Shown here piece by piece: positions 4,390 to 55,544 of a DNA stretch of 64,000 nucleotides. The stretch is from Eledone cirrhosa (lineage: Eukaryota). Both the position numbers and the translations under genes were made by a program. Below the pieces are notes generated by a model that was given only the letters and a program-made list of their open reading frames with translations, searched no databases and was not told the DNA's origin. The stretch covers positions 25,792,001 to 25,856,000 of the forward strand of contig OZ024746.1 in assembly GCA_964016885.1 (NCBI GenBank), written 5' to 3'. Numbering within the stretch: the stretch's first letter is position 1; the number at the start of each line of letters is the position of its first letter.

Positions 4390-4700
4390 GAATTCTGCCA
4401 ATCCACTGCCATGAAGTTGTACTTTAATTTATTGATCTCAAAAGGATGGAATATAAAGTTGATTGTGGCAGAATTTGATCACAGACCACAAAGTTGCAGA
4501 ACAGATGCCACAAGGTATCATCTTATCCAATATACTAAGAATTCTGCCAATCCCCTGCCATAAACTGACACTTTATTTAACAACCATAAAATGATAAAAA
4601 CTAAAATTGAACTCAGCAGGATTTGAACACAGAGAGCAAAGAGACAAAGTAAATGCCATAAGATTTTCTATCTAAGATTCTAACAATTACACCATTATAT
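4390..4700 (-). mobile_element. Two degenerate tandem tRNA-head SINE copies (family A)
   Basis: Reverse B box gatttgaac/gaatttgat, attctgccaatcc head and aaaggatg...aaagttga body. Confidence 0.6.
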
Positions 4701-12944: not shown

Positions 12945-14037
12945 AGTTCAAATCCCACTGAGGTCAACTTTGCTTTTTAGTGTTCAAAACCCACTGAGGT
13001 TCAAATCCCACTAAGGTCAACTTTGCTTTTTAGTGTTCAAAACCCACTGAGGTTCAAATTCCACTGAGGTCAACTTTGCTTTTTAGTGTTCAAAACCCAC
13101 TGAGGTTCAAATTCCACTGAGGTCAACTTTGCTTTTTAGTGTTCAAAACCCACTGAGGTTCAAATTCCACTGAGGTCAACTTTGCTTTTTAGTGTTCAAA
13201 ACCCACTGAGGTTCAAATTCCACTGAGGTCAACTTTGCTTTTTAGTGTTCAAAACCCACTGAGGTTCAAATCCCACTAAGGTCAACTTTGCTTTTTAGTG
13301 TTCAAAACCCACTGAGGTTCAAATTTCACTGAGGTCAACTTTGCTTTTTAGTGTTCAAAATCCACTGAGGTTCAAATCCCACTAAGGTCAACTTTGCTTT
13401 TTAGTGTTCAAAACCCACTGAGGTTCAAATTCCACTGAGGTCAACTTTGCTTTTTAGTGTTCAAAACCCACTGAGGTTCAAATTCCACTGAGGTCAACTT
13501 TGCTTTTTAGTGTTCAAAACCCACTGAGGTTCAAATCCCACTGAGGTCAACTTTGCTTTTTAGTGTTCAAAACCCACTGAGGTTCAAATTCCACTGAGGT
13601 CAACTTTGCTTTTTAGTGTTCAAAACCCACTGAGGTTCAAATCCCACTAAGGTCAACTTTGCTTTTTAGTGTTCAAAACTCACTGAGGTTCAAATTCCAC
13701 TGAGGTCAACTTTGCTTTTTAGTGTTCAAAACCCACTGAGGTTCAAATTCCACTGAGGTCAACTTTGCTTTTTAGTGTTCAAAACCCACTGAGGTTCAAA
13801 TCCCACTAAGGTCAACTTTGCTTTTTAGTGTTCAAAACCCACTGAGGTTCAAATTCCACTGAGGTCAACTTTGCTTTTTAGTGTTCAAAACCCACTGAGG
13901 TTCAAATTCCACTAAGGTCAACTTTGCTTTTTAGTGTTCAAAACCCACTGAGGTTCAAATCCCACTAAGGTCAACTTTGCTTTTTAGTGTTCAAAACCCA
14001 CTGAGGTTCAAATTCCACTGAGGTCAACTTCGCTTTT
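12945..14037 (+). repeat. 53-bp tandem array (about 20 copies) amplified from the B-box region of a family-A SINE
   Basis: Unit gttcaaaacccactgaggttcaaattccactgaggtcaactttgctttttagt; SINE head precedes it (12878-12945) and SINE body resumes at 14035-14072. Confidence 0.95.
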
Positions 14038-14652
14038 CATTTTTCCAGTGTTGATGAAATAAAGTGCCAGTCTAGTGGTTATAGGAACAGTTTAATGTAA
14101 GTTTGGTATCAAAAGGTTTAATGTAAATTAAGTGTTGTCATCCCTTGAGAATTAATCAGTTAAGGTGTTTAGTGAAAGGCTCTCTGATTCAGAATAATTA
14201 ATCCTGGGAAGATTTATACAAAATGTTTCCAATCATCCCGTTTTGCAGTAAAACAAGAACAATGGATATAAAACTATTTGCAGGAAAAGAAAATGAATTT
14301 CCATAAATAAAAGTGGAATTACTATTTTACCATTTCTATTGAAATTAAGAGATTTTTGTTGAAATAAAACATAAAACTCACCAACAGTTCTTGATTAAAT
14401 TGAATATATACGAAGGTATGTTTAATTCTTGTGGTTATTTCTGTTGATGTTATTATTGTGGTTGTTGCTACTGTTTTTGTTGTTATTGTTGATGCTGTTG
14501 TTTTTGTTTTTGTTTTTGTTGTTGTTGTTGTTGTTATTGCTGCTGCTACTGCTGTCCCCCCCCCCACTCCTATCCATCATAGGACCACCAGCAACAGAAA
14601 TAGTCATTCAAAAGGAGACGCATTAATATTATTTTTATTATTATTATTATTA

Positions 14653-14977
14653 TTTTGTTGAAAGATGGGTGAGAGAAGCAAGAATGGCCCAAGTGAATGG
14701 GCCTACTCTGAGTATGTGTCTGTAAATTAAAGGTGGAAAACTGGGAGAGGGCACTTGCCCTGGTGGTCAGGGTCACTGTGGCCTTTTAATGGGCTTTCTC
14801 CACAAATGTCCCTCGGAAGTCTCCCACTCTATTGGGGAATTTTTCATTGTTATTTTTTGTTACATCCTCTGTTTTTGTTTTTTTACACGCAGAAATGCCC
14901 ATTTGTACCCTCCTGTATTGTCCTGTACTGTCCTTAATGTCTACTTTATGTAAACCCTTGTGGTTAATAAAGAAAGC
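14653..14977 (+). mobile_element. Tx1/L1-like LINE 3' fragment next to (TTA)n
   Basis: FVERWVREARMAQVNGPTLSMCL* is homologous to the C-terminus of the ORF at 26557-27984; ends cccttgtggttaataaagaaagc-attatt. Confidence 0.8.
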
Positions 14978-15099
14978 ATTATTTCTTAAGATGATAAAAA
15001 TAATTAAAATATAACAGATAATTAAAATATATAACAAAGTTATTTTGACTGAAACCTTGTATCAAAACATTTATCAAATCTTGAATAAACCTGTGGCTA

Positions 15100-18000
15100 C
15101 ATGTGGTGTGTGTGTGTGTCTGTGAAAGTGGTGTGTGTGTGGGTGTGTCTGCATGTGATTGTGTTTGTGTGTGTGTGTGTGTCTAGGTATGTAAGTGTGT
15201 CTATGTATGAGAGTGGTGTGTGTATGATGGGTATGTTTAGTGTGTGTGTGAGTCTGATATGTGTATTTGGTGTGCGTATGGTGTGTGTGTGTGTGCATGT
15301 GTAGTGTGTGTGTATCTGTGTCTGTGAGTAGCGTGTGTGTGTGTGATTTATGCATTTGGTGTGTGAGCGTTTGTGGTATGTGGTCTGTGTGTCTGGGTGT
15401 TTGTGTGTCAGTTGTGTGTGTTGTGTGGTGGTGGTGTTCTGTGTCTGTGTGTCAGTTGTGTGTGTTGTGTGGTGGTGGTGTCTGTGTCTGTGTGTCTGTC
15501 GTGTGTGTTGTGTGGTGGTGGTGTGTGTGTCTGGGTGTTTGTGTGTCAGTTGTGTGTGTTGTGTGGTGGTGGTGTTCTGTGTCTGTGTGTCTGTCGTGTG
15601 TGTTGTGTGGTGGTGGTGTGTGTGTCTGGGTGTTTGTGTGTCAGTTGTGTGTGTTGTGTGGTGGTGGTGTTCTGTGTCTGTGTGTCAGTTGTGTGTGTTG
15701 TGTGGTGGTGGTGTCTGTGCCTGTGTGTCTGTCGTGTGTGTTGTGTGGTGGTGGTGTGTGTGTCTGTGTGTCAGTTGTGTGTGTTGTGTGGTGGTGGTGT
15801 CTGTGCCTGTGTGTCTGTCGTGTGTGTTGTGTGGTGGTGGTGTGTGTGTCTGTGTGTCAGTTGTGTGTGTTGTGTGGTGGTGGTGTCTGTGTGTCTGTGT
15901 GTCTGTCGTGTGTGTTGTGTGGTGGTGGTGTGTGTGTCTGTGTGTCTGTGTGTCTGTTGTGTGTGTTGTGTGGTGGTGGTGTGTGTGTCTGTGTGTCTGT
16001 GTGTCTGTGTGTATGTTGTGTGGTGGTGGTGTGTGTGTCTGTGTCAGTTGTGTGTGTTGTGTGGTGGTGGTGTGTGTGTCTGTGTGTCTGTTGTGTGTGT
16101 TGTGTGGTGGTGGTGTGTGTGTCTGTGTGTCTGTCGTGTGTGTTGTGTGGTGGTGGTGTGTGTGTCTGTGTGTCAGTTGTGTGTGTTGTGTGGTGGTGGT
16201 GTGTGTGTCTGTGTGTCTGTTGTGTGTGTTGTGTGGTGGTGGTGGTGTGTGTGTCTGTGTCTGTGTGTGTTGTGTGGTGGTGGTGTGTGTGTCTGTGTCT
16301 GTGTCAGTTGTGTGTGTTGTGTGGTGGTGGTGTGTGTGTCTGTGTGTCTGTTGTGTGTGTTGTGTGGTGGTGGTGTGTGTGTCTGTGTGTCAGTTGTGTG
16401 TGTTGTGTGGTGGTGGTGTGTGTGTCTGTGTGTCTGTGTGTATTGTGTGGTGGTGGTGTGTGTGTCTGTGTCTGTGTGTCAGTTGTGTGTGTTGTGTGGT
16501 GGTGGTGTGTGTGTCTGTGTGTCTGTGTGTCTGTCGTGTGTGTTGTGTGGTGGTGGTGTGTGTGTCAGTGTGCCTGTGTGTCTGTTGTGTGGTGGTGGTG
16601 TGTGTGTCTGTGTGTCTGTGTGTCTGTCGTGTGTGTTGTGTGGTGGTGGTGTGTGTGTCTGTGTGTTTGTGTGTCTGTCGTGTGTGTTGTGTGGTGGTGG
16701 TGTGTGTGTCAGTGTGCCTGTGTGTCTGTTGTGTGTGTTGTGTGATGGTGGTGTGTGTGTCAGTGTGCCTGTGTGTCTGTTGTGTGGTGGTGGTGTGTGT
16801 GTCTGTGTGTCTGTGTGTCTGTCGTGTGTGTTGTGTGGTGGTGGTGTGTGTGTCTGTGTGTCTGTGTGTCTGTCGTGTGTGTTGTGTGGTGGTGGTGTGT
16901 GTGTCTGTGTGTCTGTGTGTCTGTCGTGTGTGTTGTGTGGTGGTGGTGTGTGTGTCAGTGTGCCTGTGTGTCTGTTGTGTGTGTTGTGTGATGGTGGTGT
17001 GTGTGTCAGTGTGCCTGTGTGTCTGTTGTGTGGTGGTGGTGTGTGTGTCTGTGTGTCTGTGTGTCTGTCGTGTGTGTTGTGTGGTGGTGGTGTGTGTGTC
17101 AGTGTGCCTGTGTGTCTGTTGTGTGTGTTGTGTGATGGTGGTGTGTGTGTCAGTGTGCCTGTGTGTCTGTTGTGTGTGTTGTGTGATGGTGGTGTGTGTG
17201 TCTGTGTGTCTGTGTGTCTGTCGTGTGTGTTGTGTGGTGGTGGTGTGTGTGTCAGTGTGTCTGTGTGTCTGTTGTGTGTGTTGTGTGGTGGTGGTGTGTG
17301 TGTCAGTGTGCCTGTGTGTCTGTTGTGTGTGTTGTGTGATGGTGGTGTGTGTGTCTGTGTGTCTGTGTGTCTGTCGTGTGTGTTGTGTGGTGGTGGTGTG
17401 TGTGTCAGTGTGTCTGTGTGTCTGTTGTGTGTGTTGTGTGGTGGTGGTGTGTGTGTCAGTGTGCCTGTGTGTCTGTTGTGTGGTGGTGGTGTGTGTGCCT
17501 GTGTGTCTGTTGTGTGTGTTGTGTGGTGGTGGTGTGTGTGTCTGTGTGTCTGTCGTGTGTGTTGTGTGGTGGTGGTGTGTGTGTCTGTGTGTCTGTCGTG
17601 TGTGTTGTGTGGTGGTGGTGTGTGTGTCAGTGTGCCTGTGTGTCTGTTGTGTGTGTTGTGTGGTGGTGTGTGTGTCTGTGTGTCTGTGTGTCTGTCGTGT
17701 GTGTTGTGTGGTGGTGGTGTGTGTGTCTGTGTGTCTGTGTGTCTGTCGTGTGTATTGTGTGGTGGTGGTGTGTGTGTCTGTGTGTCTGTGTGTCAGTTGT
17801 GTGTGTTGTGTGGTGGTGGTGTGTGTGTCTGTGTGTCAGTTGTGTGTGTTGTGTGGTGGTGGTGTGTGTGCCTGTGTGTCTGTTGTGTGTGTTGTGTGGT
17901 GGTGGTGTGTGTGTCTGTGTGTCTGTCGTGTGTGTTGTGTGGTGGTGGTGTGTGTGTCTGTGTGTCTGTCGTGTGTGTTGTGTGGTGGTGGTGTGTGTGT

Positions 18001-20830
18001 CAGTGTGCCTGTGTGTCTGTTGTGTGTGTTGTGTGGTGGTGGTGTGTGTGCCTGTGTGTCTGTCGTGTGTGTTGTGTGGTGGTGGTGTGTGTGTCTGTGT
18101 GTCTGTCGTGTGTGTTGTGTGGTGGTGGTGTGTGTGTCAGTGTGCCTGTGTGTCTGTTGTGTGTGTTGTGTGGTGGTGGTGTGTGTGTCTGTGTGTCTGT
18201 TGTGTGTGTTGTGTGGTGGTGGTGTGTGTGTGTCAGTGTGTCTGTGTGTCTGTTGTGTGTGTTGTGTGGTGGTGGTGTGTGTGCCTGTGTGTCTGTTGTG
18301 TGTGTTGTGTGGTGGTGGTGTGTGTGTCTGTGTGTCTGTGTGTCTGTCGTGTGTGTTGTGTGGTGGTGGTGTGTGTGTCTGTGTGTCTGTGTGTCTGTCG
18401 TGTGTGTTGTGTGGTGGTGGTGTGTGTGTCTGTGTGTCTGTGTGTCTGTCGTGTGTGTTGTGTGGTGGTGGTGTGTGTGTCAGTGTGCCTGTGTGTCTGT
18501 TGTGTGTGTTGTGTGATGGTGGTGTGTGTGTCAGTGTGCCTGTGTGTCTGTTGTGTGGTGGTGGTGTGTGTGTCTGTGTGTCTGTGTGTCTGTCGTGTGT
18601 GTTGTGTGGTGGTGGTGTGTGTGTCTGTGTGTCTGTGTGTCTGTCGTGTGTGTTGTGTGGTGGTGGTGTGTGTGTCTGTGTGTCTGTGTGTCTGTCGTGT
18701 GTGTTGTGTGGTGGTGGTGTGTGTGTCTGTGTGTCTGTGTGTCTGTCGTGTGTGTTGTGTGGTGGTGGTGTGTGTGTCAGTGTGCCTGTGTGTCTGTTGT
18801 GTGTGTTGTGTGGTGGTGGTGTGTGTGTCTGTGTGTCTGTTGTGTGTGTTGTGTGGTGGTGTGTGTGTCTGTGTGTCTGTGTGTCTGTCGTGTGTGTTGT
18901 GTGGTGGTGGTGTGTGTGTCTGTGTGTCTGTGTGTCTGTCGTGTGTATTGTGTGGTGGTGGTGTGTGTGTCTGTGTGTCTGTGTGTCAGTTGTGTGTGTT
19001 GTGTGGTGGTGGTGTGTGTGTCTGTGTGTCAGTTGTGTGTGTTGTGTGGTGGTGGTGTGTGTGCCTGTGTGTCTGTTGTGTGTGTTGTGTGGTGGTGGTG
19101 TGTGTGTCTGTGTGTCTGTCGTGTGTGTTGTGTGGTGGTGGTGTGTGTGTCTGTGTGTCTGTCGTGTGTGTTGTGTGGTGGTGGTGTGTGTGTCAGTGTG
19201 CCTGTGTGTCTGTTGTGTGTGTTGTGTGGTGGTGGTGTGTGTGCCTGTGTGTCTGTCGTGTGTGTTGTGTGGTGGTGGTGTGTGTGTCTGTGTGTCTGTC
19301 GTGTGTGTTGTGTGGTGGTGGTGTGTGTGTCAGTGTGCCTGTGTGTCTGTTGTGTGTGTTGTGTGGTGGTGGTGTGTGTGTCTGTGTGTCTGTTGTGTGT
19401 GTTGTGTGGTGGTGGTGTGTGTGTGTCAGTGTGTCTGTGTGTCTGTTGTGTGTGTTGTGTGGTGGTGGTGTGTGTGCCTGTGTGTCTGTTGTGTGTGTTG
19501 TGTGGTGGTGGTGTGTGTGTCTGTGTGTCTGTCGTGTGTGTTGTGTGGTGGTGTGTGTGTCTGTGTGTCTGTGTGTCTGTCGTGTGTGTTGTGTGGTGGT
19601 GGTGTGTGTGTCTGTGTGTCTGTCGTGTGTGTTGTGTGGTGGTGGTGTGTGTGTCTGTGTGTCTGTCGTGTGTGTTGTGTGGTGGTGTGTGTGTCTGTGT
19701 GTCTGTTGTGTGTGTTGTGTGGTGGTGTGTGTGTCTGTGTGTCTGTGTGTCTGTCGTGTGTGTTGTGTGGTGGTGGTGTGTGTGTCTGTGTGTCTGTGTG
19801 TCTGTCGTGTGTGTTGTGTGGTGGTGGTGTGTGTGTCAGTGTGCCTGTGTGTCTGTTGTGTGTGTTGTGTGGTGGTGGTGTGTGTGTCTGTGTGTCTGTT
19901 GTGTGTGTGTTGTGTGGTGGTGTGTGTGTCTGTGTGTCTGTGTGTCTGTCGTGTGTGTTGTGTGGTGGTGGTGTGTGTGTCAGTGTGCCTGTGTGTCTGT
20001 TGTGTGTGTTGTGTGGTGGTGGTGTGTGTGTCTGTGTGTCTGTTGTGTGTGTTGTGTGGTGGTGGTGTGTGTGTCTGTGTGCCTGTGTGTCTGTGTGTCT
20101 GTGTGTGTGTTGTGTGGTGGTGGTGTGTGTTGTGTGGTGGTGGTGTGTGTGCCTGTGTGTCTGTGTGTCTGTGTGTGTGTTGTGTGGTGGTGGTAGTTGT
20201 GTGTGTGGATGGTGTGTAGTGCATGTGTGTCAAGTGTGCATTGTGTGTGTGTGCTGTCTGTGTGGACTTGCATGGGAAGTATGTGTGTGTGTGTGGTCAC
20301 TATGTATGTGTATGTATTAGTGGTGTGCGTGTGGTATATATGTGTGTGTGGTCACTATGTATGTGTATGTATTAGTGGTGTGCATGTGGTATATGTGTGT
20401 GTGGTCACTATGTATGTGTATGTATTTATGGTGTGTGTGTGTGGTGTATATATATGTATATGTGCATGTATATGTATATGTGGGTATTTATGGTGTACAT
20501 ATGCATGCAGTGTTTATATGTGTGTATGAGTACATGTATATATGTGTGTATGTATGTGTATGCATATATATTTGTGTGAGCGTATGTGTGTAAATTTGTG
20601 TGTGGTGTTTGTGTGTGTATGTGTGCATCTATATATTTGTGTATATATCTATATGTGTGAGCATGTATCTCTGTGTACGTGCATGTATCTCTATATGTGT
20701 GTAGATGTATGCATTTGTGTATGTATCTATATGTGTGTGAACGTGTGTGTGTGTGTGTACATGTAAACGTGTGTATAGTATATGTGTGAGTATGTGTGTG
20801 TATGTGTGAGTATGTTTGTGATTGTTTATT
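15100..20830. repeat. GT-rich compound satellite (core 15380-20200, unit about 42-50 bp)
   Basis: Unit gtgtgtgttgtgtggtggtggtgtgtgtgtctgtgtgtctgtc with 8-bp indel variants; flanked by degenerate (GT)n. Confidence 0.95.
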
Positions 20831-37571: not shown

Positions 37572-40500
37572 GCTTCAACCACACCACATTTAGTTTGGCA
37601 CTCTACTGCTTCAACCACCCAACATCTAGTCTGGCACTCTACTGCTTCAACCACCCAACATCTAGTCTGACACTCTACTGCTTCAACCACCCAACATCTA
37701 GTCTGACACTCTACTGCTTCAACCACCCAACATCTAGTCTGGCACTCTACTGCTTCAACCACCTAACATCTAGTCTGGCACTCTACTGCTTCCACCACCC
37801 AACATCTAGTCTGGCACTCTACTGCTTCAACCACCCAACATCTAGGCTGACACTCTACTGCTTCAACCACCCAACATCTAGTCTGACACTCTACTGCTTC
37901 AACCACCCAACATCTAGTCTGGCACTCTACTGCTTCAACCACCTAACATCTAGTCTGGCACTCTACTGCCTCAACCACCCAACATCTAGTCTGGCACTCT
38001 ACTGCTTCAACCACCCAACATCTAGTCTGACACTCTACTGCTTCAACCACCCAACATCTAGTCTGACACTCTACTGCTTCAACCACCCAACATCTAGTCT
38101 GACACTCTACTGCTTCAACCACCCAACATCTAGTCTGGCACTCTACTGCTTCAACCACCTAACATCTAGTCTGGCACTCTACTGCCTCAACCACCCAACA
38201 TCTAGTCTGGCACTCTACTGCTTCAACCACCCAACATCTAGTCTGACACTCTACTGCTTCAACCACCCAACATCTAGTCTGGCACTCTACTGCTTCAACC
38301 ACCCAACATCTAGTCTGGCACTCTACTGCTTCAACCACCCAACATCTAGTCTGACACTCTACTGCTTCAACCACCTAACATCTAGTCTGGCACTCTACTG
38401 CTTCAACCACCCAACATCTAGTCTGGCACTCTACTGCTTCAACCACCCAACATCTAGTCTGGCACTCTACTGCTTCAACCACCCAACATCTAGTCTGGCA
38501 CTCTACTGCTTCAACCACCCAACATCTAGGCTGACACTCTACTGCTTCAACCACCCAACATCTAGTCTGACACTCTACTGCTTCAACCACCCAACATCTA
38601 GTCTGGCACTCTACTGCTTCAACCACCCAACATCTAGTCTGACACTCTACTGCTTCAACCACCTCACATCTAGTCTGGCACTCTACTGCTTCCACCACCC
38701 AACATCTAGTCTGACACTCTACTGCTTCCACCACCCAACATCTAGTCTGACACTCTACTGCTTCAACCACACCACATCTAGTCTGGCACTCTACTGCTTC
38801 AACCACCCAACATCTAGGCTGGCACTCTACTGCTTCAACCACCCAACATCTAGTCTGACACTCTACTGCTTCCACCACCCAACATCTAGTCTGGCACTCT
38901 ACTGCTTCCACCACCCAACATCTAGTCTGGCACTCTACTGCTTCAACCACCCAACATCTAGTCTGGCACTCTACTGCTTCAACCACCCAACATCTAGTCT
39001 GACACTCTACTGCTTCAACCACCCAACATCTAGGCTGGCACTCTACTGCTTCAACCACCCAACATCTAGTCTGACACTCTACTGCTTCCACCACCCAACA
39101 TCTAGTCTGGCACTCTACTGCTTCCACCACCCAACATCTAGTCTGGCACTCTACTGCTTCAACCACCCAACATCTAGTCTGGCACTCTACTGCTTCAACC
39201 ACCCAACATCTAGTCTGGCACTCTACTGCTTCAACCACCCAACATCTAGTCTGGCACTCTACTGCTTCCACCACCCAACATCTAGTCTGGCACTCTACTG
39301 CTTCAACCACCCAACATCTAGTCTGGCACTCTACTGCTTCAACCACCCAACATCTAGTCTGGCACTCTACTGCTTCCACCACCCAACATCTAGTCTGGCA
39401 CTCTACTGCTTCAACCACACCACATCTAGTCTGGCACTCTACTGCTTCAACCACCCAACATCTAGTCTGGCACTCTACTGCTTCAACCACCCAACATCTA
39501 GTCTGGCACTCTACTGCTTCAACCACACCACATCTAGTCTGGCACTCTACTGCTTCAACCACCCAACATCTAGTCTGGCACTCTACTGCTTCAACCACCC
39601 AACATCTAGTCTGGCACTCTACTGCTTCAACCACCCAACATCTAGTCTGGCACTCTACTGCTTCAACCACCCAACATCTAGTCTGGCACTCTACTGCTTC
39701 AACCACCCAACATCTAGTCTGGCACTCTACTGCTTCAACCACCCAACATCTAGTCTGGCACTCTACTGCTTCCACCACCCAACATCTAGTCTGGCACTCT
39801 ACTGCTTCAACCACACCACATCTAGTCTGGCACTCTACTGCTTCCACCACCCAACATCTAGGCTGGCACTCTACTGCTTCAACCACCCAACATCTAGTCT
39901 GACACTCTACTGCTTCAACCACCTCACATCTAGTCTGGCACTCTACTGCTTCAACCACCCAACATCTAGTCTGGCACTCTACTGCTTCCACCACCCAACA
40001 TCTAGTCTGACACTCTACTGCTTCAACCACACCACATCTAGTCTGGCACTCTACTGCTTCAACCACCCAACATCTAGGCTGGCACTCTACTGCTTCAACC
40101 ACCCAACATCTAGGCTGGCACTCTACTGCTTCAACCACCCAACATCTAGTCTGACACTCTACTGCTTCAACCACCCAACATCTAGTCTGGCACTCTACTG
40201 CTTCAACCACCCAACATCTAGTCTGGCACTCTACTGCTTCAACCACCCAACATCTAGTCTGACACTCTACTGCTTCCACCACCCAACATCTAGTCTGACA
40301 CTCTACTGCTTCAACCACACCACATCTAGTCTGGCACTCTACTGCTTCAACCACCCAACATCTAGGCTGGCACTCTACTGCTTCAACCACCCAACATCTA
40401 GGCTGGCACTCTACTGCTTCAACCACCCAACATCTAGTCTGACACTCTACTGCTTCAACCACCCAACATCTAGTCTGGCACTCTACTGCTTCAACCACCC

Positions 40501-43500
40501 AACATCTAGTCTGGCACTCTACTGCTTCAACCACCCAACATCTAGTCTGACACTCTACTGCTTCCACCACCCAACATCTAGTCTGGCACTCTACTGCTTC
40601 CACCACCCAACATCTAGTCTGGCACTCTACTGCTTCAACCACCCAACATCTAGTCTGGCACTCTACTGCTTCAACCACCCAACATCTAGTCTGACACTCT
40701 ACTGCTTCCACCACCCAACATCTAGTCTGGCACTCTACTGCTTCAACCACCCAACATCTAGTCTGGCACTCTACTGCTTCAACCACCCAACATCTAGTCT
40801 GGCACTCTACTGCTTCAACCACCCAACATCTAGTCTGGCACTCTACTGCTTCCACCACCCAACATCTAGTCTGGCACTCTACTGCTTCAACCACACCACA
40901 TCTAGTCTGGCACTCTACTGCTTCCACCACCCAACATCTAGGCTGACACTCTACTGCTTCAACCACCCAACATCTAGTCTGACACTCTACTGCTTCAACC
41001 ACCTCACATCTAGTCTGGCACTCTACTGCTTCAACCACCCAACATCTAGTCTGGCACTCTACTGCTTCCACCACCCAACATCTAGGCTGGCACCCTACTG
41101 CTTCAACCACCCAACATCTAGTCTGGCACTCTACTGCTTCAACCACCCAACATCTAGTCTGGCACTCTACTGCTTCAACCACCCAACATCTAGTCTGGCA
41201 CTCTACTGCTTCAACCACCCAACATCTAGTCTGACACTCTACTGCTTCAACCACCCAACATCTAGTCTGGCACTCTACTGCTTCAACCACCCAACATCTA
41301 GTCTGGCACTCTACTGCTTCAACCACCCAACATCTAGTCTGACACTCTACTGCTTCAACCACCCAACATCTAGTCTGACACTCTACTGCTTCAACCACCC
41401 AACATCTAGTCTGACACTCTACTGCTTCAACCACCCAACATCTAGTCTGGCACTCTACTGCTTCAACCACCCAACATCTAGTCTGACACTCTACTGCTTC
41501 AACCACCCAACATCTAGTCTGACACTCTACTGCTTCAACCACCCAACATCTAGTCTGGCACTCTACTGCTTCAACCACCCAACATCTAGTCTGGCACTCT
41601 ACTGCTTCAACCACCCAACATCTAGTCTGACACTCTACTGCTTCAACCACCCAACATCTAGTCTGACACTCTACTGCTTCAACCACCCAACATCTAGTCT
41701 GGCACTCTACTGCTTCAACCACCCAACATCTAGTCTGACACTCTACTGCTTCAACCACCCAACATCTAGTCTGACACTCTACTGCTTCAACCACCCAACA
41801 TCTAGTCTGGCACTCTACTGCTTCAACCACCCAACATCTAGTCTGACACTCTACTGCTTCAACCACCCAACATCTAGTCTGACACTCTACTGCTTCAACC
41901 ACCCAACATCTAGTCTGGCACTCTACTGCTTCAACCACCCAACATCTAGTCTGACACTCTACTGCTTCAACCACCCAACATCTAGTCTGGCACTCTACTG
42001 CTTCAACCACCCAACATCTAGTCTGACACTCTACTGCTTCAACCACCCAACATCTAGTCTGGCACTCTACTGCTTCAACCACCCAACATCTAGTCTGACA
42101 CTCTACTGCTTCAACCACCCAACATCTGGTCTGGCACTCTACTGCTTCAACCACCCAACATCTAGTCTGGCACTCTACTGCTTCAACCACACCACATCTA
42201 GTCTGGCACTCTACTACTTCAACCACCCAACATCTAGGCTGACACTCTACTGCTTCCACCACCCAACATCTAGTCTGACACTCTACTGCTTCAACCACCC
42301 AACATCTAGTCTGACACTCTACTGCTTCCACCACCCAACATCTAGTCTGGCACTCTACTGCTTCAACCACACCACATCTAGTCTGGCACTCTACTGCTTC
42401 CACCACCCAACATCTAGTCTGACACTCTACTGCTTCAACCACCCAACATCTAGTCTGACACTCTACTGCTTCCACCACCCAACATCTAGTCTGACACTCT
42501 ACTGCTTCCACCACCCAACATCTAGTCTGGCACTCTACTGCTTCCACCACCCAACATCTAGGCTGACACTCTACTGCTTCCACCACCCAACATCTAGTCT
42601 GACACTCTACTGCTTCAACCACCCAACATCTAGTCTGACACTCTACCGCTTCAACCACCCAACATCTAGTCTGACACTCTACTGCTTCAACCACCCAACA
42701 TCTAGTCTGACACTCTACTGCTTCAACCACCCAACATCTAGTCTGACACTCTACTGCTTCAACCACCCAACATCTAGTCTGACACTCTACTGCTTCCACC
42801 ACCCAACATCTAGTCTGACACTCTACTGCTTCAACCACCCAACATCTAGTCTGACACTCTACTGCTTCCACCACCCAACATCTATTCTGGCACTCTACTG
42901 CTTCCACCACCCAACATCTAGTCTGACACTCTACTGCTTCAACCACCTCACATCTAGTCTGACACTCTACTGCTTCAACCACCCAACATCTAGTCTGACA
43001 CTCTACTGCTTCAACCACCCAACATCTAGTCTGACACTCTACTGCTTCAACCACCCAACATCTAGTCTGACACTCTACTGCTCCCACCACCCAACATCTA
43101 GTCTGACACTCTACTGCTTCCACCACCCAACATTTAGTCTGACACTCTACTGCTTCCACCACCCAACATCTAGTCTGGCACTCTACTGCTTCAACCACCC
43201 AACATCTAGTCTGACACTCTACTGCTTCAACCACCCAACATCTAGTCTGACACTCTACTGCTTCAACCACCCAACATCTAGTCTGACACTCTACTGCTTC
43301 AACCACCCAACATCTAGTCTGACACTCTACTGCTTCAACCACCCAACATCTAGTCTGACACTCTACTGCTTCAACCACCCAACATCTAGGCTGGCACTCT
43401 ACTGCTTCCACCACCCAACATCTAGTCTGGCACTCTACTGCTTCAACCACCCAACATCTAGTCTGGCACTCTACTGCTTCAACCACCCAACATCTAGTCT

Positions 43501-45575
43501 GACACTCTACTGCTTCAACCACCCAACATCTAGTCTGACACTCTACTGCTTCAACCACCCAACATCTAGTCTGACACTCTACTGCTTCAACCACCCAACA
43601 TCTAGTCTGACACTCTACTGCTTCAACCACCCAACATCTAGTCTGGCACTCTACTGCTTCAACCACCCAACATCTAGTCTGACACTCTACTGCTTCAACC
43701 ACCCAACATCTAGTCTGACACTCTACTGCTTCAACCACCCAACATCTAGTCTGACACTCTACTGCTTCAACCACCCAACATCTAGTCTGACACTCTACTG
43801 CTTCAACCACCCAACATCTAGTCTGACACTCTACTGCTTCAACCACCCAACATCTAGTCTGGCACTCTACTGCTTCAACCACACCACATCTAGTCTGGCA
43901 CTCTACTGCTTCCACCACCCAACATCTAGTCTGGCACTCTACTGCTTCAACCACACCACATCTAGTCTGGCACTCTACTGCTTCCACCACCCAACATCTA
44001 GTCTGGCACTCTACTGCTTCAACCACACCACATCTAGTCTGGCACTCTACTGCTTCAACCACCCAACATCTAGGCTGACACTCTACTGCTTCCACCACCC
44101 AACATCTAGTCTGGCACTCTACTGCTTCAACCACCCAACATCTAGGCTGGCACTCTACTGCTTCCACCACCCAACATCTAGGCTGGCACTCTACTGCTTC
44201 AACCACCCAACATCTAGGCTGACACTCTACTGCTTCCACCACCCAACATCTAGGCTGGCACTCTACTGCTTCAACCACCCAACATCTAGGCTGACACTCT
44301 ACTGCTTCAACCACCCAACATCTAGGCTGGCACTCTACTGCTTCAACCACCCAACATCTAGTCTGACACTCTACTGCTTCAACCACCCAACATCTAGGCT
44401 GGCACTCTACTGCTTCAACCACCCAACATCTAGTCTGGCACTCTACTGCTTCAACCACCCAACATCTAGTCTGGCACTCTACTGCTTCAACCACACCACA
44501 TCTAGTCTGACACTCTACTGCTTCAACCACCTCACATCTAGTCTGACACTCTACTGCTTCAACCACCCAACATCTAGTCTGGCACTCTACTGCTTCCACC
44601 ACCCAACATCTAGTCTGACACTCTACTGCTTCCACCACCCAACATCTAGTCTGGCACTCTACTGCTTCAACCACCCAACATCTAGTCTGACACTCTACTG
44701 CTTCAACCACCCAACATCTAGTCTGGCACTCTACTGCTTCCACCACCCAACATCTAGTCTGACACTCTACTGCTTCAACCACCCAACATCTAGTCTGACA
44801 CTCTACTGCTTCCACCACCCAACATCTAGTCTGGCACTCTACTGCTTCAACCACCTCACATCTAGTCTGGCACTCTACTGCTTCAACCACCCAACATCTA
44901 GTCTGGCACTCTACTGCTTCAACCACCCAACATCTAGACTGGCACTCTACTGCTTCCACCACCCAACATCTAGTCTGGCACTCTACTGCTTCAACCACCC
45001 AACATCTAGTCTGGCACTCTACTGCTTCAACCACCCAACATCTAGTCTGGCACTCTACTGCTTCAACCACCCAACATCTAGTCTGGCACTCTACTGCTTC
45101 CACCACCCAACATCTAGTCTGACACTCTACTGCTTCAACCACCTCACATCTAGGCTGGCACTCTACTGCTTCCACCACCCAACATCTAGTCTGACACTCT
45201 ACTGCTTCCACCACCCAACATCTAGTCTGACACTCTACTGCTTCCACCACCCAACATCTAGGCTGGCACTCTACTGCTTCAACCACCCAACATCTAGGCT
45301 GACACTCTACTGCTTCAACCACCCAACATCTAGTCTGGCACTCTACTGCTTCAACCACCCAACATCTAGTCTGGCACTCTACTGCTTCAACCACCCAACA
45401 TCTAGTCTGGCACTCTACTGCTTCAACCACCCAACATCTAGTCTGGCACTCTACTGCTTCAACCACCCAACATCTAGTCTGACACTCTACTGCTTCAACC
45501 ACCCAACATCTAGTCTGGCACTCTACTGCTTCCACCACCCAACATCTAGTTGGGTGCTCTACTGCTTCAACCTCC
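37572..45575. repeat. 36-bp minisatellite array, about 222 copies, no visible indels
   Basis: Unit ctggcactctactgcttcaaccacccaacatctagt; variants almost confined to 4 positions. Confidence 0.98.
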
Positions 45576-45804
45576 CACCCACATTATTTTTAGTGCTTTA
45601 TACTTCTACCACTCAACATGACTCAACATTAAAAATATATTACTTACCCTTCCCCAACCCCTACAACTGAAATTTTCTGGACCCCCCCCCCTCCATAAAT
45701 ATTCCTCTCCCAACAATAAAATCTCTGACAATTTAAATGTGTTGATGAAATTAAAGTAATGCAAGTATTCAATAAAATTCATCCAGTACACTCTGTAAAA
45801 TGTA

Positions 45805-46125
45805 AGTGGCTGAGTATTCTCTAGAAATGTGTACCCTTAATATAATTCTCAGGGAGATTCAGCATGACACAGTGTATGATAAGATTTGTCTTTTGAAGTA
45901 CAGATATCACTAATGTTTTTTTTCCACTGTATGAACTGGAGCAATGAAAAATATGAGGGTCGACTGAAAGGTACATAGATTGACCAGAATCCTTCATAGT
46001 TGGCCTATGTACTTTTGAGCTAATCCTCATAGAGTGTCTTGCTCAAGGATATAACCCACTGCTGGAAAAATGAACTCACGACCTTACAATCATGATCTGA
46101 ACACCTTAACCACTAAGCCACATGT
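45805..46125 (-). mobile_element. Family-C SINE
   Basis: gtggctgagtattc..gtgtcttgctcaagga..tgaactcacgaccttacaatcatga..taaccactaagccac. Confidence 0.75.
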
Positions 46126-48834: not shown

Positions 48835-49838
48835 TGTCGACAGTGGAGATACAGTAGAGTTACAGTGGAGATACAGCAGAGTTACAGTTGAGACACAGCA
48901 GAGTTACAGTAGAGCTAATTCTGCTATGTAATACTGTCTACACTGGAACTACAGTAGAGTCACAGCAGAGCTACAGTTGAGTTACTGTGGAGTTACAGTG
49001 GAGTTACAGTGGAGCTGCAGTAGAACTATAGTAGAGTTACAGTAGAGTTACAGTGGAGGTACAGCAGAGTTACAGTAGAGACACAGCAGAGTTACAGTAG
49101 AGCTAATTCTGCTATGTAATACTGTCTACACTGGAACTACAGTAGAGCTACAGTAGAGACACAGCAGAGCTACAGTTGAGTTACTGTGGAGATACAGTGG
49201 AGTTACAGTGGAGTTGCAGTAGAAATACAGTGGAACTACAGTAGAGTTACAGTAGAGTTACAGTAGAGCTACAGTAGAGTCACAGCAGAGCTACAGTAGA
49301 GACACAGCAGAGTTATAGTAGAGCTAATTCTGCTATGTAATGCTGTCTACACTGGAACTACAGTAGAGCTACAGTAGAGACACAGCAGAGCTACAGTTGA
49401 GTTACTGTGGAGATACACTGGAGTTACAGTGGAGCTGCAGTAGAAGTACAGTGGAACTACAGTAGAGTTACAGTGGAGGTACAGCAGAGTTACAGTAGAG
49501 ACACAGCAGAGTTACAGTATAGCTAATTCTGCTATGTAATGCTGTCTACACTGGAACTACAGTAGAGCTACAGTAGAGACACAGCAGAGCTACAGTTGAG
49601 TTACTGTGGAGATACAGTGGAGTTACAGTGGAGCTGCAGTAGAAATACAGTGGAACTACAGTAGAGTTACAGTAGAGTTACAGTAGAGCTACAGTAGAGT
49701 CACAGCAGAGCTACAGTTGAGTTACTGTGGAGATACAGTGGAGCTGCAGTAGAACTAGTGGAACTACAGTAGAGTTACAGTGGAGGTACAATAGATTTTA
49801 CAGTGGAACCGTAGCGGAGCTACAGTGGAGGTACAGTG
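48835..49838. repeat. 11-bp minisatellite (tacagtagagt) with ~190-220 bp higher-order units
   Basis: The marker ctaattctgctatgtaat(a/g)ctgtctacactggaac recurs at about 48915, 49103, 49324 and 49523. Confidence 0.9.
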
Positions 49839-51409: not shown

Positions 51410-51925
51410 ACATGTGATGCGTATGAAGGATGACAGCTGCATAAAAAGGTGCAGAGCACTAGAAGTTGATGGAAACCGCGGAGTGGGGAGACCCAAGATG
51501 ACTTGGGATGAGGTGATAAAAGCTGACCTTACCCAACTACACCTCTCAAAGTCAATGACACATGACCGTGACTTCTGGCGTCACGCAGTAATACAGGGTA
51601 CCCGACCTCCCATGGGTACATGCTGAAGCATATAAACAATATGCCCCCACTCCCCCCACCGCAAGGTGGTCGTGGAGGTGCCACGGCAAAAAAGCACCCA
51701 GCCCACACTGTAAAGTGGACGTGTAGGCGCCACGAAAAAGCACCCAGCACTCACTGTAAATGAGGTTGGTGTTAGGAAGGGCATCCAGCTGTAGAAATCA
51801 AGCCAAATCAGTTCCTGTATGAGCAAGGCATGGTCAGCCGACCAGACACTGCCCACAACAGGACAACCCGTCTAACCCATGCTAGCGTGGAAGAACGGAC
51901 GTAAAACGGTGATGATGATGATGAT
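51410..51925 (+). mobile_element. RTE LINE ORF C-terminus followed by the 48-bp module and RTE-type tail
   Basis: HVMRMKDDSCIKRCRALEVDGNRGVGRPKMTWDEVIKADL..DRDFWRHAV..*, then the ggtgccacggcaaaaaagcacccag module, gaagggcatccagctgtagaa and cccatgctagcgtggaagaacggacgtaaaacg-(GAT)n. Confidence 0.85.
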
Positions 51926-52002
51926 ATATATATAACGGAGAAAATGTGGTAAGGAACCAGGTGGACCATAACGCACCAAAGTACTCAATACTTAGGGTAG
52001 TA

Positions 52003-52101
52003 ATAGGAACGAGTAGGACCCCGACGGCTGAGCTCAAGCCGTTTTGACGGAGAATTAGCTGTCGAAACGGCTTGAGCTCAGCCGTCGGGGTCCTACTCGT
52101 T

Positions 52102-52106
<5 letters not shown>
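52003..52106. repeat. Foldback inverted repeat (46-bp arms) containing the 3' half of a hammerhead motif
   Basis: ataggaacgagtaggaccccgacggctgagctcaagccgttttgac / gtcgaaacggcttgagctcagccgtcggggtcctactcgttcctat; the insert 51934-52106 is flanked by (TA)n. Confidence 0.9.
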
Positions 52107-52140
<34 letters not shown>

Positions 52141-52241: not shown

Positions 52242-52277
52242 TCTTCTGATGAAGGACTAGCATCTGAAACGTTAAGA
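52242..52277 (+). ncRNA. Very minimal type I hammerhead-like motif
   Basis: TCTT-CTGATGA-AGG actagca TCT-GAAA-CG-TT-AAGA; palindromic ACGT stem III, weak 3-bp stem II, GUU site. Confidence 0.5.
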
Positions 52278-52612
52278 CTCTCTTCCTGCTGTTTCAAGCA
52301 TTAAACTAATATATTCCTTCGATGTACTGTGCCATTTGTTTTGTTATCTTTGTTATTTCTCTTTACTTTTTACATATAACCCTTTTCCGAGACACCCTAC
52401 TTTAAGATTGAGCCTGGGCCCTAATGATTGCAAAGCATATCCCTTAACCATTCAGCCATACTGCATCTACTGCAGGTTACTACCAACTGTAACATGCCAT
52501 ATATTCTTAACTTCTGGAAGAGTTTTAGAAACACCACAATTACATATAATGTGACTTGGGCATTTAAAAGTGAGTCTTTCCCTCTCCATCCTGGAGTGCA
52601 GCTGGTTTTCTG

Positions 52613-54645: not shown

Positions 54646-54955
54646 TTGAGCTTGCAATCAAAAGGTTGTGAGTTCAATTCTCAGACCGGGTAATGTGTTG
54701 TGTCCTTGAGCAAGACACTTTATTTCACATTGATCCAGTTTACTCAGCTGTAGAAATGAGATGATAGGGACTGGGGTCCCTATCATTCCACTGCAAAGTG
54801 GTCGTGGAGGTGCCACGGCAAAAAAGCACCCAGCACTCACTGTAAATGAGGTTGGTGTTAGGAAGGGCATCCAGCTGTAGAAATCAAGCCAGAATCAGTT
54901 CCCGTCCCACCCTTGCAAGCAGGGAAAAGTGGACGTAAATGATGATGATGATGAT
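54645..54955 (+). mobile_element. Family-C head SINE with RTE-type tail
   Basis: gagttcaattc..tgtgtccttgagcaagacactttatttcac..; 54790-54900 is nearly identical to 51660-51815. Confidence 0.8.
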
Positions 54956-55544
54956 ATATATATATTCCACCATTGCTAGCAGGGAAATTGGACATTAAAA
55001 CAACAATGATGATATATATATATGTATATATATATATATATCAAGATTCTATCCATTATGTATATATACATCAAGATTCTACACATTATATATATATATG
55101 TACAAAGTAGTGTATAAAAAACTTGGCCATAGTGGGGCTGAACGCCAAATTATGCAAAGCTAATTCCCTCAGTGCCACACCAACCATGCTCCTATCTCCT
55201 TCCCACCCACTCTAATCATCTCCATTCTTAGTCCAGCTAAGGACACAATAATTGCATTAGTGTTAATGCCACAGTGGAATGCATCAAGTGCAATCTGTAA
55301 AGTGGTAGTGCTGGTGCCATGATAAATGACACCCATCCCACTCTATATATTAGCAGTCTTCATGTTACAATCAAATGTACCTAGCACGCTCTGTAAAGTG
55401 GTAGTGCTGGGGCCACACTAACATGCATCCAGTACACACTGTAAATTGGTTAACATTAGGAAGACATTGCACCTAGAATGTTCCCCTCTGAGGTTGTCTA
55501 AGGAAAAGGAAACTTCTGATACAGCTTGGCACAAGTGATGTCAC

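Follow-up and report, generated by a model that had tools for sequence, protein, structure and literature searches.

The foldback at positions 51934 to 52106 of the window (the whole 64,000-nucleotide stretch of Eledone cirrhosa DNA that was analyzed) is an ordinary copy of a new Hydra family, and the junctions of that family are collectively an unusually clear record of mechanism. The foldback is almost certainly the end of a young Hydra-clade Penelope-like element (PLE) inserted in (TA)n, and minimal head-to-head insertions of this kind were probably formed from two separate cDNAs that, having run off the element RNA at its 5' end, were joined to each other. We identified a parent element, two 3' ends 78 nt apart, a fixed 5' limit (here called the wall), a second stop at -97, template-jump junctions at both of these points, and a symmetric polarity of the two arms. 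The genome-wide wall and cut-site counts are new.

Family coordinates were counted from the tail end (0), such that the short site is at -78, the cut falls after -98, stem III occupies -117 to -99, the stem II 3' strand -128 to -121, loop II -165 to -129, and the stem II 5' strand -166 to -174. An earlier note on this DNA, made from the letters of the window, had read the plus strand as a hammerhead hairpin series, and that reading was reproduced base for base from GACGG at 52046 through GGGGTCC at 52093: GACGG (52046-52050), AGAATTAG (52051-52058), CTGTC (52059-52063), GAAA (52064-52067), CGGCT-TGAGCTC-AGCCG (52068-52084), TC (52085-52086), and GGGGTCC (52087-52093). The arms of the foldback (52003-52050 versus 52059-52106) mismatch at 2 of 48 positions, both being C-to-T changes at CpG relative to the family, and the left arm carries an extra 69 nt (51934-52002) that is absent from the right arm. 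Folded as DNA, the structure reached -68.3 kcal/mol (z = -15.2), with no equally good fold among 200 shuffles. The parts are as follows.

51924..51933, no strand: left (TA)n target microsatellite, terminating an upstream SINE-like repeat; (TA)n flanks 30 of the 30 best homologues
51934..52050, minus strand: tail arm, a 5'-truncated element end, family -125 to the tail end (0)
51934..52002, minus strand: the stretch that separates the two fixed 3' ends (PLE "tail"), 78 nt long in the family and 69 nt in this copy, with a 9-nt deletion
52050..52051, no strand: head-to-head junction, blunt, with neither microhomology nor inserted bases
52051..52106, plus strand: short (site-1) arm, family -133 to -78, extending 8 nt further 5' than the tail arm
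52051..52063, plus strand: 3' end of loop II (AGAAT) and native stem II 3' strand (TAGCTGTC; family TAGCCGTC)
52064..52067, plus strand: hammerhead core G12 A13 A14 A15.1
52067..52085, plus strand: stem III, 6 bp including A15.1-U16.1, with a 7-nt loop
52086..52087, plus strand: predicted cleavage site GUC^G, family -98/-97, the center of 273 other foldbacks
52087..52103, plus strand: stem I 3' strand (GGGGT, internal loop, TTCC), its 5' partner being absent from the window copy
52107..52138, no strand: right (TA)n target microsatellite

The same note had taken GACGG for the 5' strand of stem II. It is instead the reverse complement of the family sequence CCGTC and belongs to the inverted arm; the G.T "wobble" in GACGG/CTGTC is CpG decay, and AGAATTAG covers the last part of loop II and runs three bases into the stem II 3' strand. 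The note's further observation, that the reverse complement of the downstream part stands in the place of the hammerhead 5' half, holds for the window copy, in which a complete hammerhead core in cis is absent because the 5' half is missing. The search of the window copy against Rfam yielded no hammerhead, since half of the ribozyme is missing, and returned only microRNA-like hairpin matches below threshold. The window copy belongs to the CTAC subfamily. A search of the genome with the window foldback gave 2,038 candidates, 40 of which were scored, and the 30 best homologues (all fetched) had the identical two outer ends in (TA)n and many different centers. The exact window junction occurs at 9 places genome-wide, versus at least 19,380 foldbacks centered in the same zone.

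The parent was traced via copies that extend upstream, leading to locus L061, which contains a truncated copy in inverted orientation that carries the tail, a partial tandem, a 719-amino-acid open reading frame (ORF) with a reverse transcriptase (RT) plus a GIY-YIG domain at its C terminus, and an end at site 1. The ORF contains the motifs FDIESYY, YRDD, and VIYQ...YIG, its Atlas neighbors carry GIY-YIG and RVT_1 domains, and sequence searches of Pfam and PDB with the ORF gave no match. Both the single RT plus GIY-YIG ORF and the map of L061 (partial tandem pLTR, inverted 5'-truncated copy, tail at one end only) are those of an EN+ Penelope-like element. The marks of the Hydra clade given in section 11 of Craig et al. 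2021 (PMC8557442) are present in the ORF as DKT at 117, CNCPDRSIC at 572 (the CxCx5C linker), CNLC at 670 (CxxC), and CKH at 698 (CxH), and the target is (TA)n. For the RWK motif, the ORF has RWR at 37, a conservative change. Assignment to the Neptune clade was rejected, as Neptune has a CX2-5CxxC linker finger and DKG whereas CxCx5C and DKT are present here. The family is young, since at least 38 of the 150 scored matches to the first 200 amino acids were at the top score with 100% identity; some of these top-scoring ORF copies sit in tandem arrays with periods of ~3.53 kb. The ATG lies 93 nt after the tail end, and both fixed 3' sites are upstream of it. In L061 (985-2175, minus strand, and about 7500), the full element sits in a (TA)n within a LINE RT fragment, and its second 3' untranslated region is ~430 nt shorter than the first.

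The upstream hammerhead half is kept at 4,453 places genome-wide, 30 of which were fetched. In these intact copies the order is GGAA-TT-ACCCC, UUGA(G/U)AA, G(A/C)TCGGCTA, and loop II, followed by TAGCCGTC, GAAA, stem III, UC, GGGGT, an internal loop, and TTCC, the native stem II being G(A/C)TCGGCTA...TAGCCGTC, which closes a 37-to-39-nt loop II. Intact members had been expected to show a stem I 5' strand followed by CUGANGA upstream of GACGG; the stem I 5' strand (GGAATTACCCC) and a core were indeed present, but the core reads UUGA(G/U)AA rather than CUGANGA and is not followed by GACGG. The note's view that this is a PLE end carrying a hammerhead is supported. The intact parent has the features of a Type I hammerhead (three stems, a 3-8 pair, G10.1-C11.1, GAAA, and an NUH site), and the unconstrained minimum-energy fold of the L061 pLTR was a three-way junction (-27.5 kcal/mol). 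A U3-A8 core was found in 23 of the 30 intact copies, comprising 19 of 19 in the TTAC subfamily and 4 of 11 in CTAC, while the remaining 7 CTAC copies were mispaired, with C3 or G3 opposite A8. Core variation among intact copies was confined to nucleotides 3 and 7, nucleotides 4 to 6 and 9 and the 3' half being fixed by the search pattern, and compensatory stem changes numbered zero among 15 distinct close intact copies retrieved with a pattern that fixed several core positions. A search for intact copies of the diverged relative L262 found none. A pseudoknot between loops I and II (CCAG/CTGG) is not claimed, its pairing being confined to one subfamily and showing no covariation.

The tail-end anchor matched 21,845 exact places, and the first 100 of these listed, all from C1 and biased to young copies and to one chromosome arm, were analyzed. 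At least 65 of the 100 tail-anchored copies had an adjacent foldback (at least two more were missed). Among the 65, the inverted arm ended at -78 and lacked the tail in 59; nearly all stubs consist of one arm that ends at a fixed site and one that ends 78 nt further on, at the tail. Tail arms that reached -130 almost always stopped soon thereafter (57 of 62 by -143 in the sample of 100). Per 14-nt bin, the tail-arm stop rate was 0.02 to 0.10 up to -123 and then rose to 0.56 and 0.83, these rates being those obtained after hand correction of L147, L127, and L113, with L073 classed as complex. Short arms stopped in the wall zone in 53 of 65 cases. The wall lies at -131 to -142, inside hammerhead loop II, with stops spread over 12 nt rather than at one base. 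The suggestion in the earlier note that breakpoints be checked genome-wide was borne out to the extent that foldback centers do cluster inside the ribozyme: at least 19,380 fall in the wall zone versus 43 in the next upstream window, the reversed-pattern controls for these counts being 0 and 2, respectively. Five copies without an adjacent short inverted arm also stopped at the wall. The diverged relatives L262 to L266 share the short-arm and tail-arm layout and the center, and in L262 the register of the foldback is the same although the sequence at the wall differs, as does the stem II 3' strand.

The earlier note had proposed that nascent cDNA snapped back on the stem II hairpin of the ribozyme and primed itself. 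The foldback center does adjoin the stem II 3' strand, and breakpoints cluster at that place; however, the GACGG/CTGTC hairpin is missing from the parent, and the cDNA halts ~25 nt short of the stem II 5' strand (-166 to -174) and hence at no time contains both strands. The polarity is also wrong. At the window locus the tail arm goes no further than -125 and the short arm extends to -133, and this argues against snap-back, since a strand copied from a tail-primed cDNA cannot outreach that cDNA. Seven of the 9 copies with the exact window junction had the polarity that is wrong for snap-back. Over 65 foldbacks, the short arm reached further 5' than the tail arm in 23, equally far in 13, and less far in 29, and when the members of a pair differed by at least 15 nt the tail arm was the shorter in 9 of 10. 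Foldbacks centered on the real stem III hairpin (n = 20) were divided into 7 tail-arm, 7 short-arm, 5 symmetric, and 1 unclear. The foldback is very probably not a snap-back of tail-primed cDNA, and priming on the stem II hairpin itself is scarcely credible.

We also considered the possibility that self-priming of one nucleic acid (for example, an antisense template) makes a palindrome, the polarity of which is scrambled by later central deletions. Later deletions in palindromes are plausible, and self-priming is considered improbable rather than dismissed because a later central deletion could blur the polarity. In its favor, subfamily-specific bases are common to both arms, the arm ends are correlated (both at -97), and the hypothesis is a published one (Arkhipova 2013, PMC3846280). 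On the other hand, the end of the short arm is a fixed site that is also used by non-inverted copies, tail arms are often too short to have served as the template for the other arm (L074, L080, L093, L119, L122, and L137), centers of zero bases or one base (CCCC-T-GGGG) give no primer stem, and copies without an inverted arm halt at the same wall. Two separately primed cDNAs are therefore preferred to a single self-primed one.

Of the 65 foldback junctions, 28 had microhomology, 11 were blunt, and 26 had inserted bases, suggesting end-joining of two free ends. The junctions of L104, L108, L138, L146, and L156 contained 7 to 11 inserted nucleotides, several of them copied from nearby arm sequence; insertions copied from nearby sequence are typical of polymerase-theta-type joining. 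The tail runs on into the ORF leader at 318 places, and among 30 of these that were fetched, 8 independent loci carried a same-direction jump from a short ORF piece back to the pLTR. In all 8, the rejoin point was at either ~-135 to -141 (five loci, one approximate) or -97/-98 (three loci). These RTs characteristically jump where a template ends, and since the jumps rejoin at both points, the wall and -97 behave like physical 5' ends of RNA. Contrary to the simplest version of the model, no copy with a full-length ORF started at the wall among the 8 resolved in one set (one started at -98) or among the 3 in another. The source of long copies must be read-through or circular RNA. In a separate arrangement, L161 / L272 (G000:C1:27.009-27.010 Mb) consists of a 257-nt unit (-141 to +115) repeated in tandem, the identical junction occurring twice; it is retrozyme-like yet lacks the ribozyme 5' half, and circular RNA or a repeated jump could account for it.

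These patterns make it likely that the wall corresponds to a physical RNA 5' end. Such an end may itself be a transcription start, a reading that we favor by a little over even odds, most likely at the TCATT(T/C) that coincides with the wall (A at -142), an initiator-like motif. As points against a transcription start, a TATA-like run located 25 to 29 nt upstream of the wall is present in the TTAC subfamily only, not being kept in CTAC, and the putative starts would be spread over 12 nt. No convincing Pol III boxes were found by eye. The D. virilis Penelope promoter is described as TATA-less and internal, and initiator-bearing pLTR promoters are known for Drosophila and Adineta Penelope (for Adineta, PMC3846280). 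In two runs, the depth of contigs changed ~10-fold at the wall, and contigs showed the same two 3' ends; they also contained foldback joints, including one at the cut site, with the window junction spanned by no piece and RNA ends not being visible in contigs.

It is unlikely, although the two-cDNA architecture would be the same, that the wall reflects stalling of the RT at RNA structure, a cut made in RNA processing, or a splicing intermediate, and that -97 is a stall at the base of stem III. The 12-nt width of the wall zone, the lack of a full-length copy that begins at the wall, and the position of -97 next to the stem III base are all in keeping with a stall or processing event, as are TTCAT, which resembles a branch point, and TTTTCATTTAG, which resembles a splice acceptor. 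However, no upstream exon is common to the junctions, and the wall is in a loop past stems III and II, both of which the RT crosses at a low stop rate. Furthermore, the unpaired C17 is left out of the arms that end at -97, which contain untemplated bases, both points serve as origins of jumps, and the subfamily whose core is paired is overrepresented in the cut-site class. A spliced-exon explanation was rejected, neither a common upstream exon nor a donor being found at the junctions.

The -97 class consists of foldbacks centered on the predicted cleavage site. Of 972 foldbacks centered near stem III, those in which both arms reach -97 with no more than 3 nt between them numbered 273, versus 4 for the equivalent position at -101 and 8 at -93; these counts bear indirectly on the predicted self-cleavage after C17 in the intact parent. 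The class amounts to ~1 to 2% of foldbacks, and all 20 fetched loci of the stem III/cut-site set keep the short-arm and tail-arm layout. Among the 50 listed of the 273 loci, 25 had two arms that both lack C17 and are separated by untemplated bases, mainly A/T, while 18 had zero gap and 7 had GTC; the last two groups, 25 loci in all, could also be longer foldbacks that were shortened by CG or CCG microhomology deletions. The TTAC subfamily contributed 36 of 42 assignable non-GTC cut-site loci, compared to 55% genome-wide (P = 3.5e-5), and more weakly 19 of 24 unambiguous loci (P = 0.02); against a small local baseline, the same two tests gave P values of 0.04 and 0.40. The -97 class quite probably represents ribozyme cutting of read-through RNA. 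Because both arms stop at -97 together in so rare a class, one RNA appears to serve both, which suggests that both arms usually would derive from one RNA molecule. Weighing against the ribozyme reading of this class, in the published material on Poseidon uncleaved RNA was the dominant substrate and no Anolis reads ended at the cut site (Frangieh 2024, PMC11167929). At G000:C2:42128156-42128271, by its coordinates, a cut-site-centered foldback has a tail arm that continues into the ORF leader.

Under the preferred reading, each cDNA would be primed, probably, from one side of a cut in (TA)n, the tail arm of the window copy (51934..52050) being the cDNA primed at the downstream start site and the short arm (52051..52106) the second cDNA. 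The two fixed 3' ends would then be two internal RT start sites, like those seen in vitro for Poseidon, with one site used per target end. An RNA that starts in loop II would give run-off cDNAs of ~64 and ~142 nt, which, unless they jump, may be trimmed and then joined head to head by microhomology or blunt end-joining, while read-through RNA could cut itself and so give rise to the -97 class. The window copy would be without the ribozyme 5' half because RNA from the wall lacks that half and could not cut itself. As one joint reading, we put forward tentatively, at somewhat less than even odds, that Penelope-like elements replicate via "strong-stop" cDNAs. A dimeric enzyme would prime the two target ends, using two sites close to the 5' end of a single RNA; a cDNA that jumps to an RNA 3' end would yield a pLTR or tandem, and without a jump the stubs would be joined as a foldback. 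The promoter would lie within hammerhead loop II, so that self-cutting would be limited to read-through RNA. If this is true, the hundreds of cut-site insertions are a genomic record of germ-line PLE ribozyme cleavage and of retrotransposition of the product.

Further possibilities are that long inverted copies collapsed after insertion or that the stub is a MITE-like unit that moves whole. In their favor, stem-III-centered copies resemble microhomology deletions, and the copy number is very high. Either is very improbable. Collapse predicts neither a fixed wall in copies without an inverted arm nor any jumps, and a unit that moves whole does not account for junctions that vary by copy (9 places for the window junction versus 19,380), or for the finding that those 9 copies span several subfamilies and both polarities. 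As a class assignment, a MITE or foldback DNA transposon was likewise rejected, because such elements have terminal inverted repeats and are copied whole as a single structure, whereas here the ends differ by the 78-nt tail and the junctions vary from one copy to another.

L1 twin priming and retroviral strong-stop DNA offer parallels, in that both target ends prime and the cDNA ends are joined head to head, and in that a short cDNA begun close to the RNA 5' end has to jump in order to go on. Unlike those systems, the cDNAs here overlap in sequence and start at fixed internal sites, with no RNase H and no tRNA primer. Within the PLE literature outside subscription papers, twin priming, a fixed 5' wall, and cut-site-terminated copies were not found. 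The layout itself, with an inverted truncated copy, a tail, and (TA)n, was known already (PMC8557442), and the family resembles the Hydra-clade PLEs of that paper in its C-terminal GIY-YIG domain, DKT, CxCx5C linker, CxxC, CxH, and (TA)n target, as well as in the pLTR hammerhead, the inverted 5'-truncated copy, and the tail at one end. It is a family separate from Hydra-1_Obim, for which the hammerhead listed there differs. Compared with the Hydra-clade elements as described in the relevant sections of that paper, it has a U3-A8 core, a 6-bp stem III, a 37-nt loop II, and a tail of 78 nt instead of 30 to 40 nt, and it is dominated by ORF-less stubs with a fixed 5' wall, whereas those sections report no wall or cut-site class (PMC8557442).

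In the in vitro target-primed reverse transcription described for Poseidon PAc, both target strands are cut and extended, and two internal RNA start sites delimit the tail (Frangieh et al. 2024, PMC11167929). The present family shares with Poseidon PAc the two RT start sites (putative here) that delimit the tail, an AT-rich target, and the pLTR hammerhead, the difference being that both sites are upstream of the ATG here. The inversion was left unexplained in the account of Poseidon PAc (PMC11167929), whereas the genome here records both arms and a base-exact cut-site stop. As in the PLE hammerheads described by Cervera and de la Pena 2014 (PMC4209133), the ribozyme is Type I with a long stem II and G10.1-C11.1, there is a U3-A8 variant as in Schistosoma, and motif pairs lie on opposite strands; unlike in those, stem III is long enough for a monomer fold. 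Evidence of in vivo cleavage is stated in that paper to be absent (PMC4209133). The head-to-head inverted pLTRs, junction palindromes, and TATA plus initiator-like motif of the pLTR recall Adineta vaga Penelope, for which self-priming on an antisense template is the explanation given (Arkhipova et al. 2013, PMC3846280), while the polarity here favors two cDNAs.

The origin of PLE inverted ends, tails, and pseudo-LTRs and the in vivo cutting of the hammerhead are stated as open questions in these sources (PMC8557442, PMC4209133, PMC11167929). The family bears on them as a counted, base-resolution record that argues against the published self-priming and ties two in vitro start sites to two arms. 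It also predicts a start site and a cleavage product, and the 38 identical ORF starts offer an enzyme for reconstitution. If transcribed, the hairpins, ~20,000 in number and near-perfect, would likely give rise to double-stranded RNA; repeats arranged as palindromes are heavily targeted by ADAR, and octopus is described as rich in such loci (PMC5625713).

Several neighboring features were recorded. Two copies of a SINE-like repeat, which we take to be octopus-type, lie at 51656-51923 and 54788-54964 of the window and end in (TGA)n(TA)n, the foldback being in the (TA)n of the first copy. A minimal hammerhead-like motif (CTGATGA...GAAAC) of another repeat family is at 52246-52280 (plus strand), 140 nt downstream of the foldback, and text similar to it flanks L047 and L191. 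At L034, a foldback of the family is flanked by the two inward-facing ends of another repeat, which targets (TA)n and has a CTGATGA motif. Elsewhere in the window, at 14000-20000, 38000-46000, and 49000-49760, there are long strand-skewed stretches and an 11-bp minisatellite in a 221-bp higher-order repeat.
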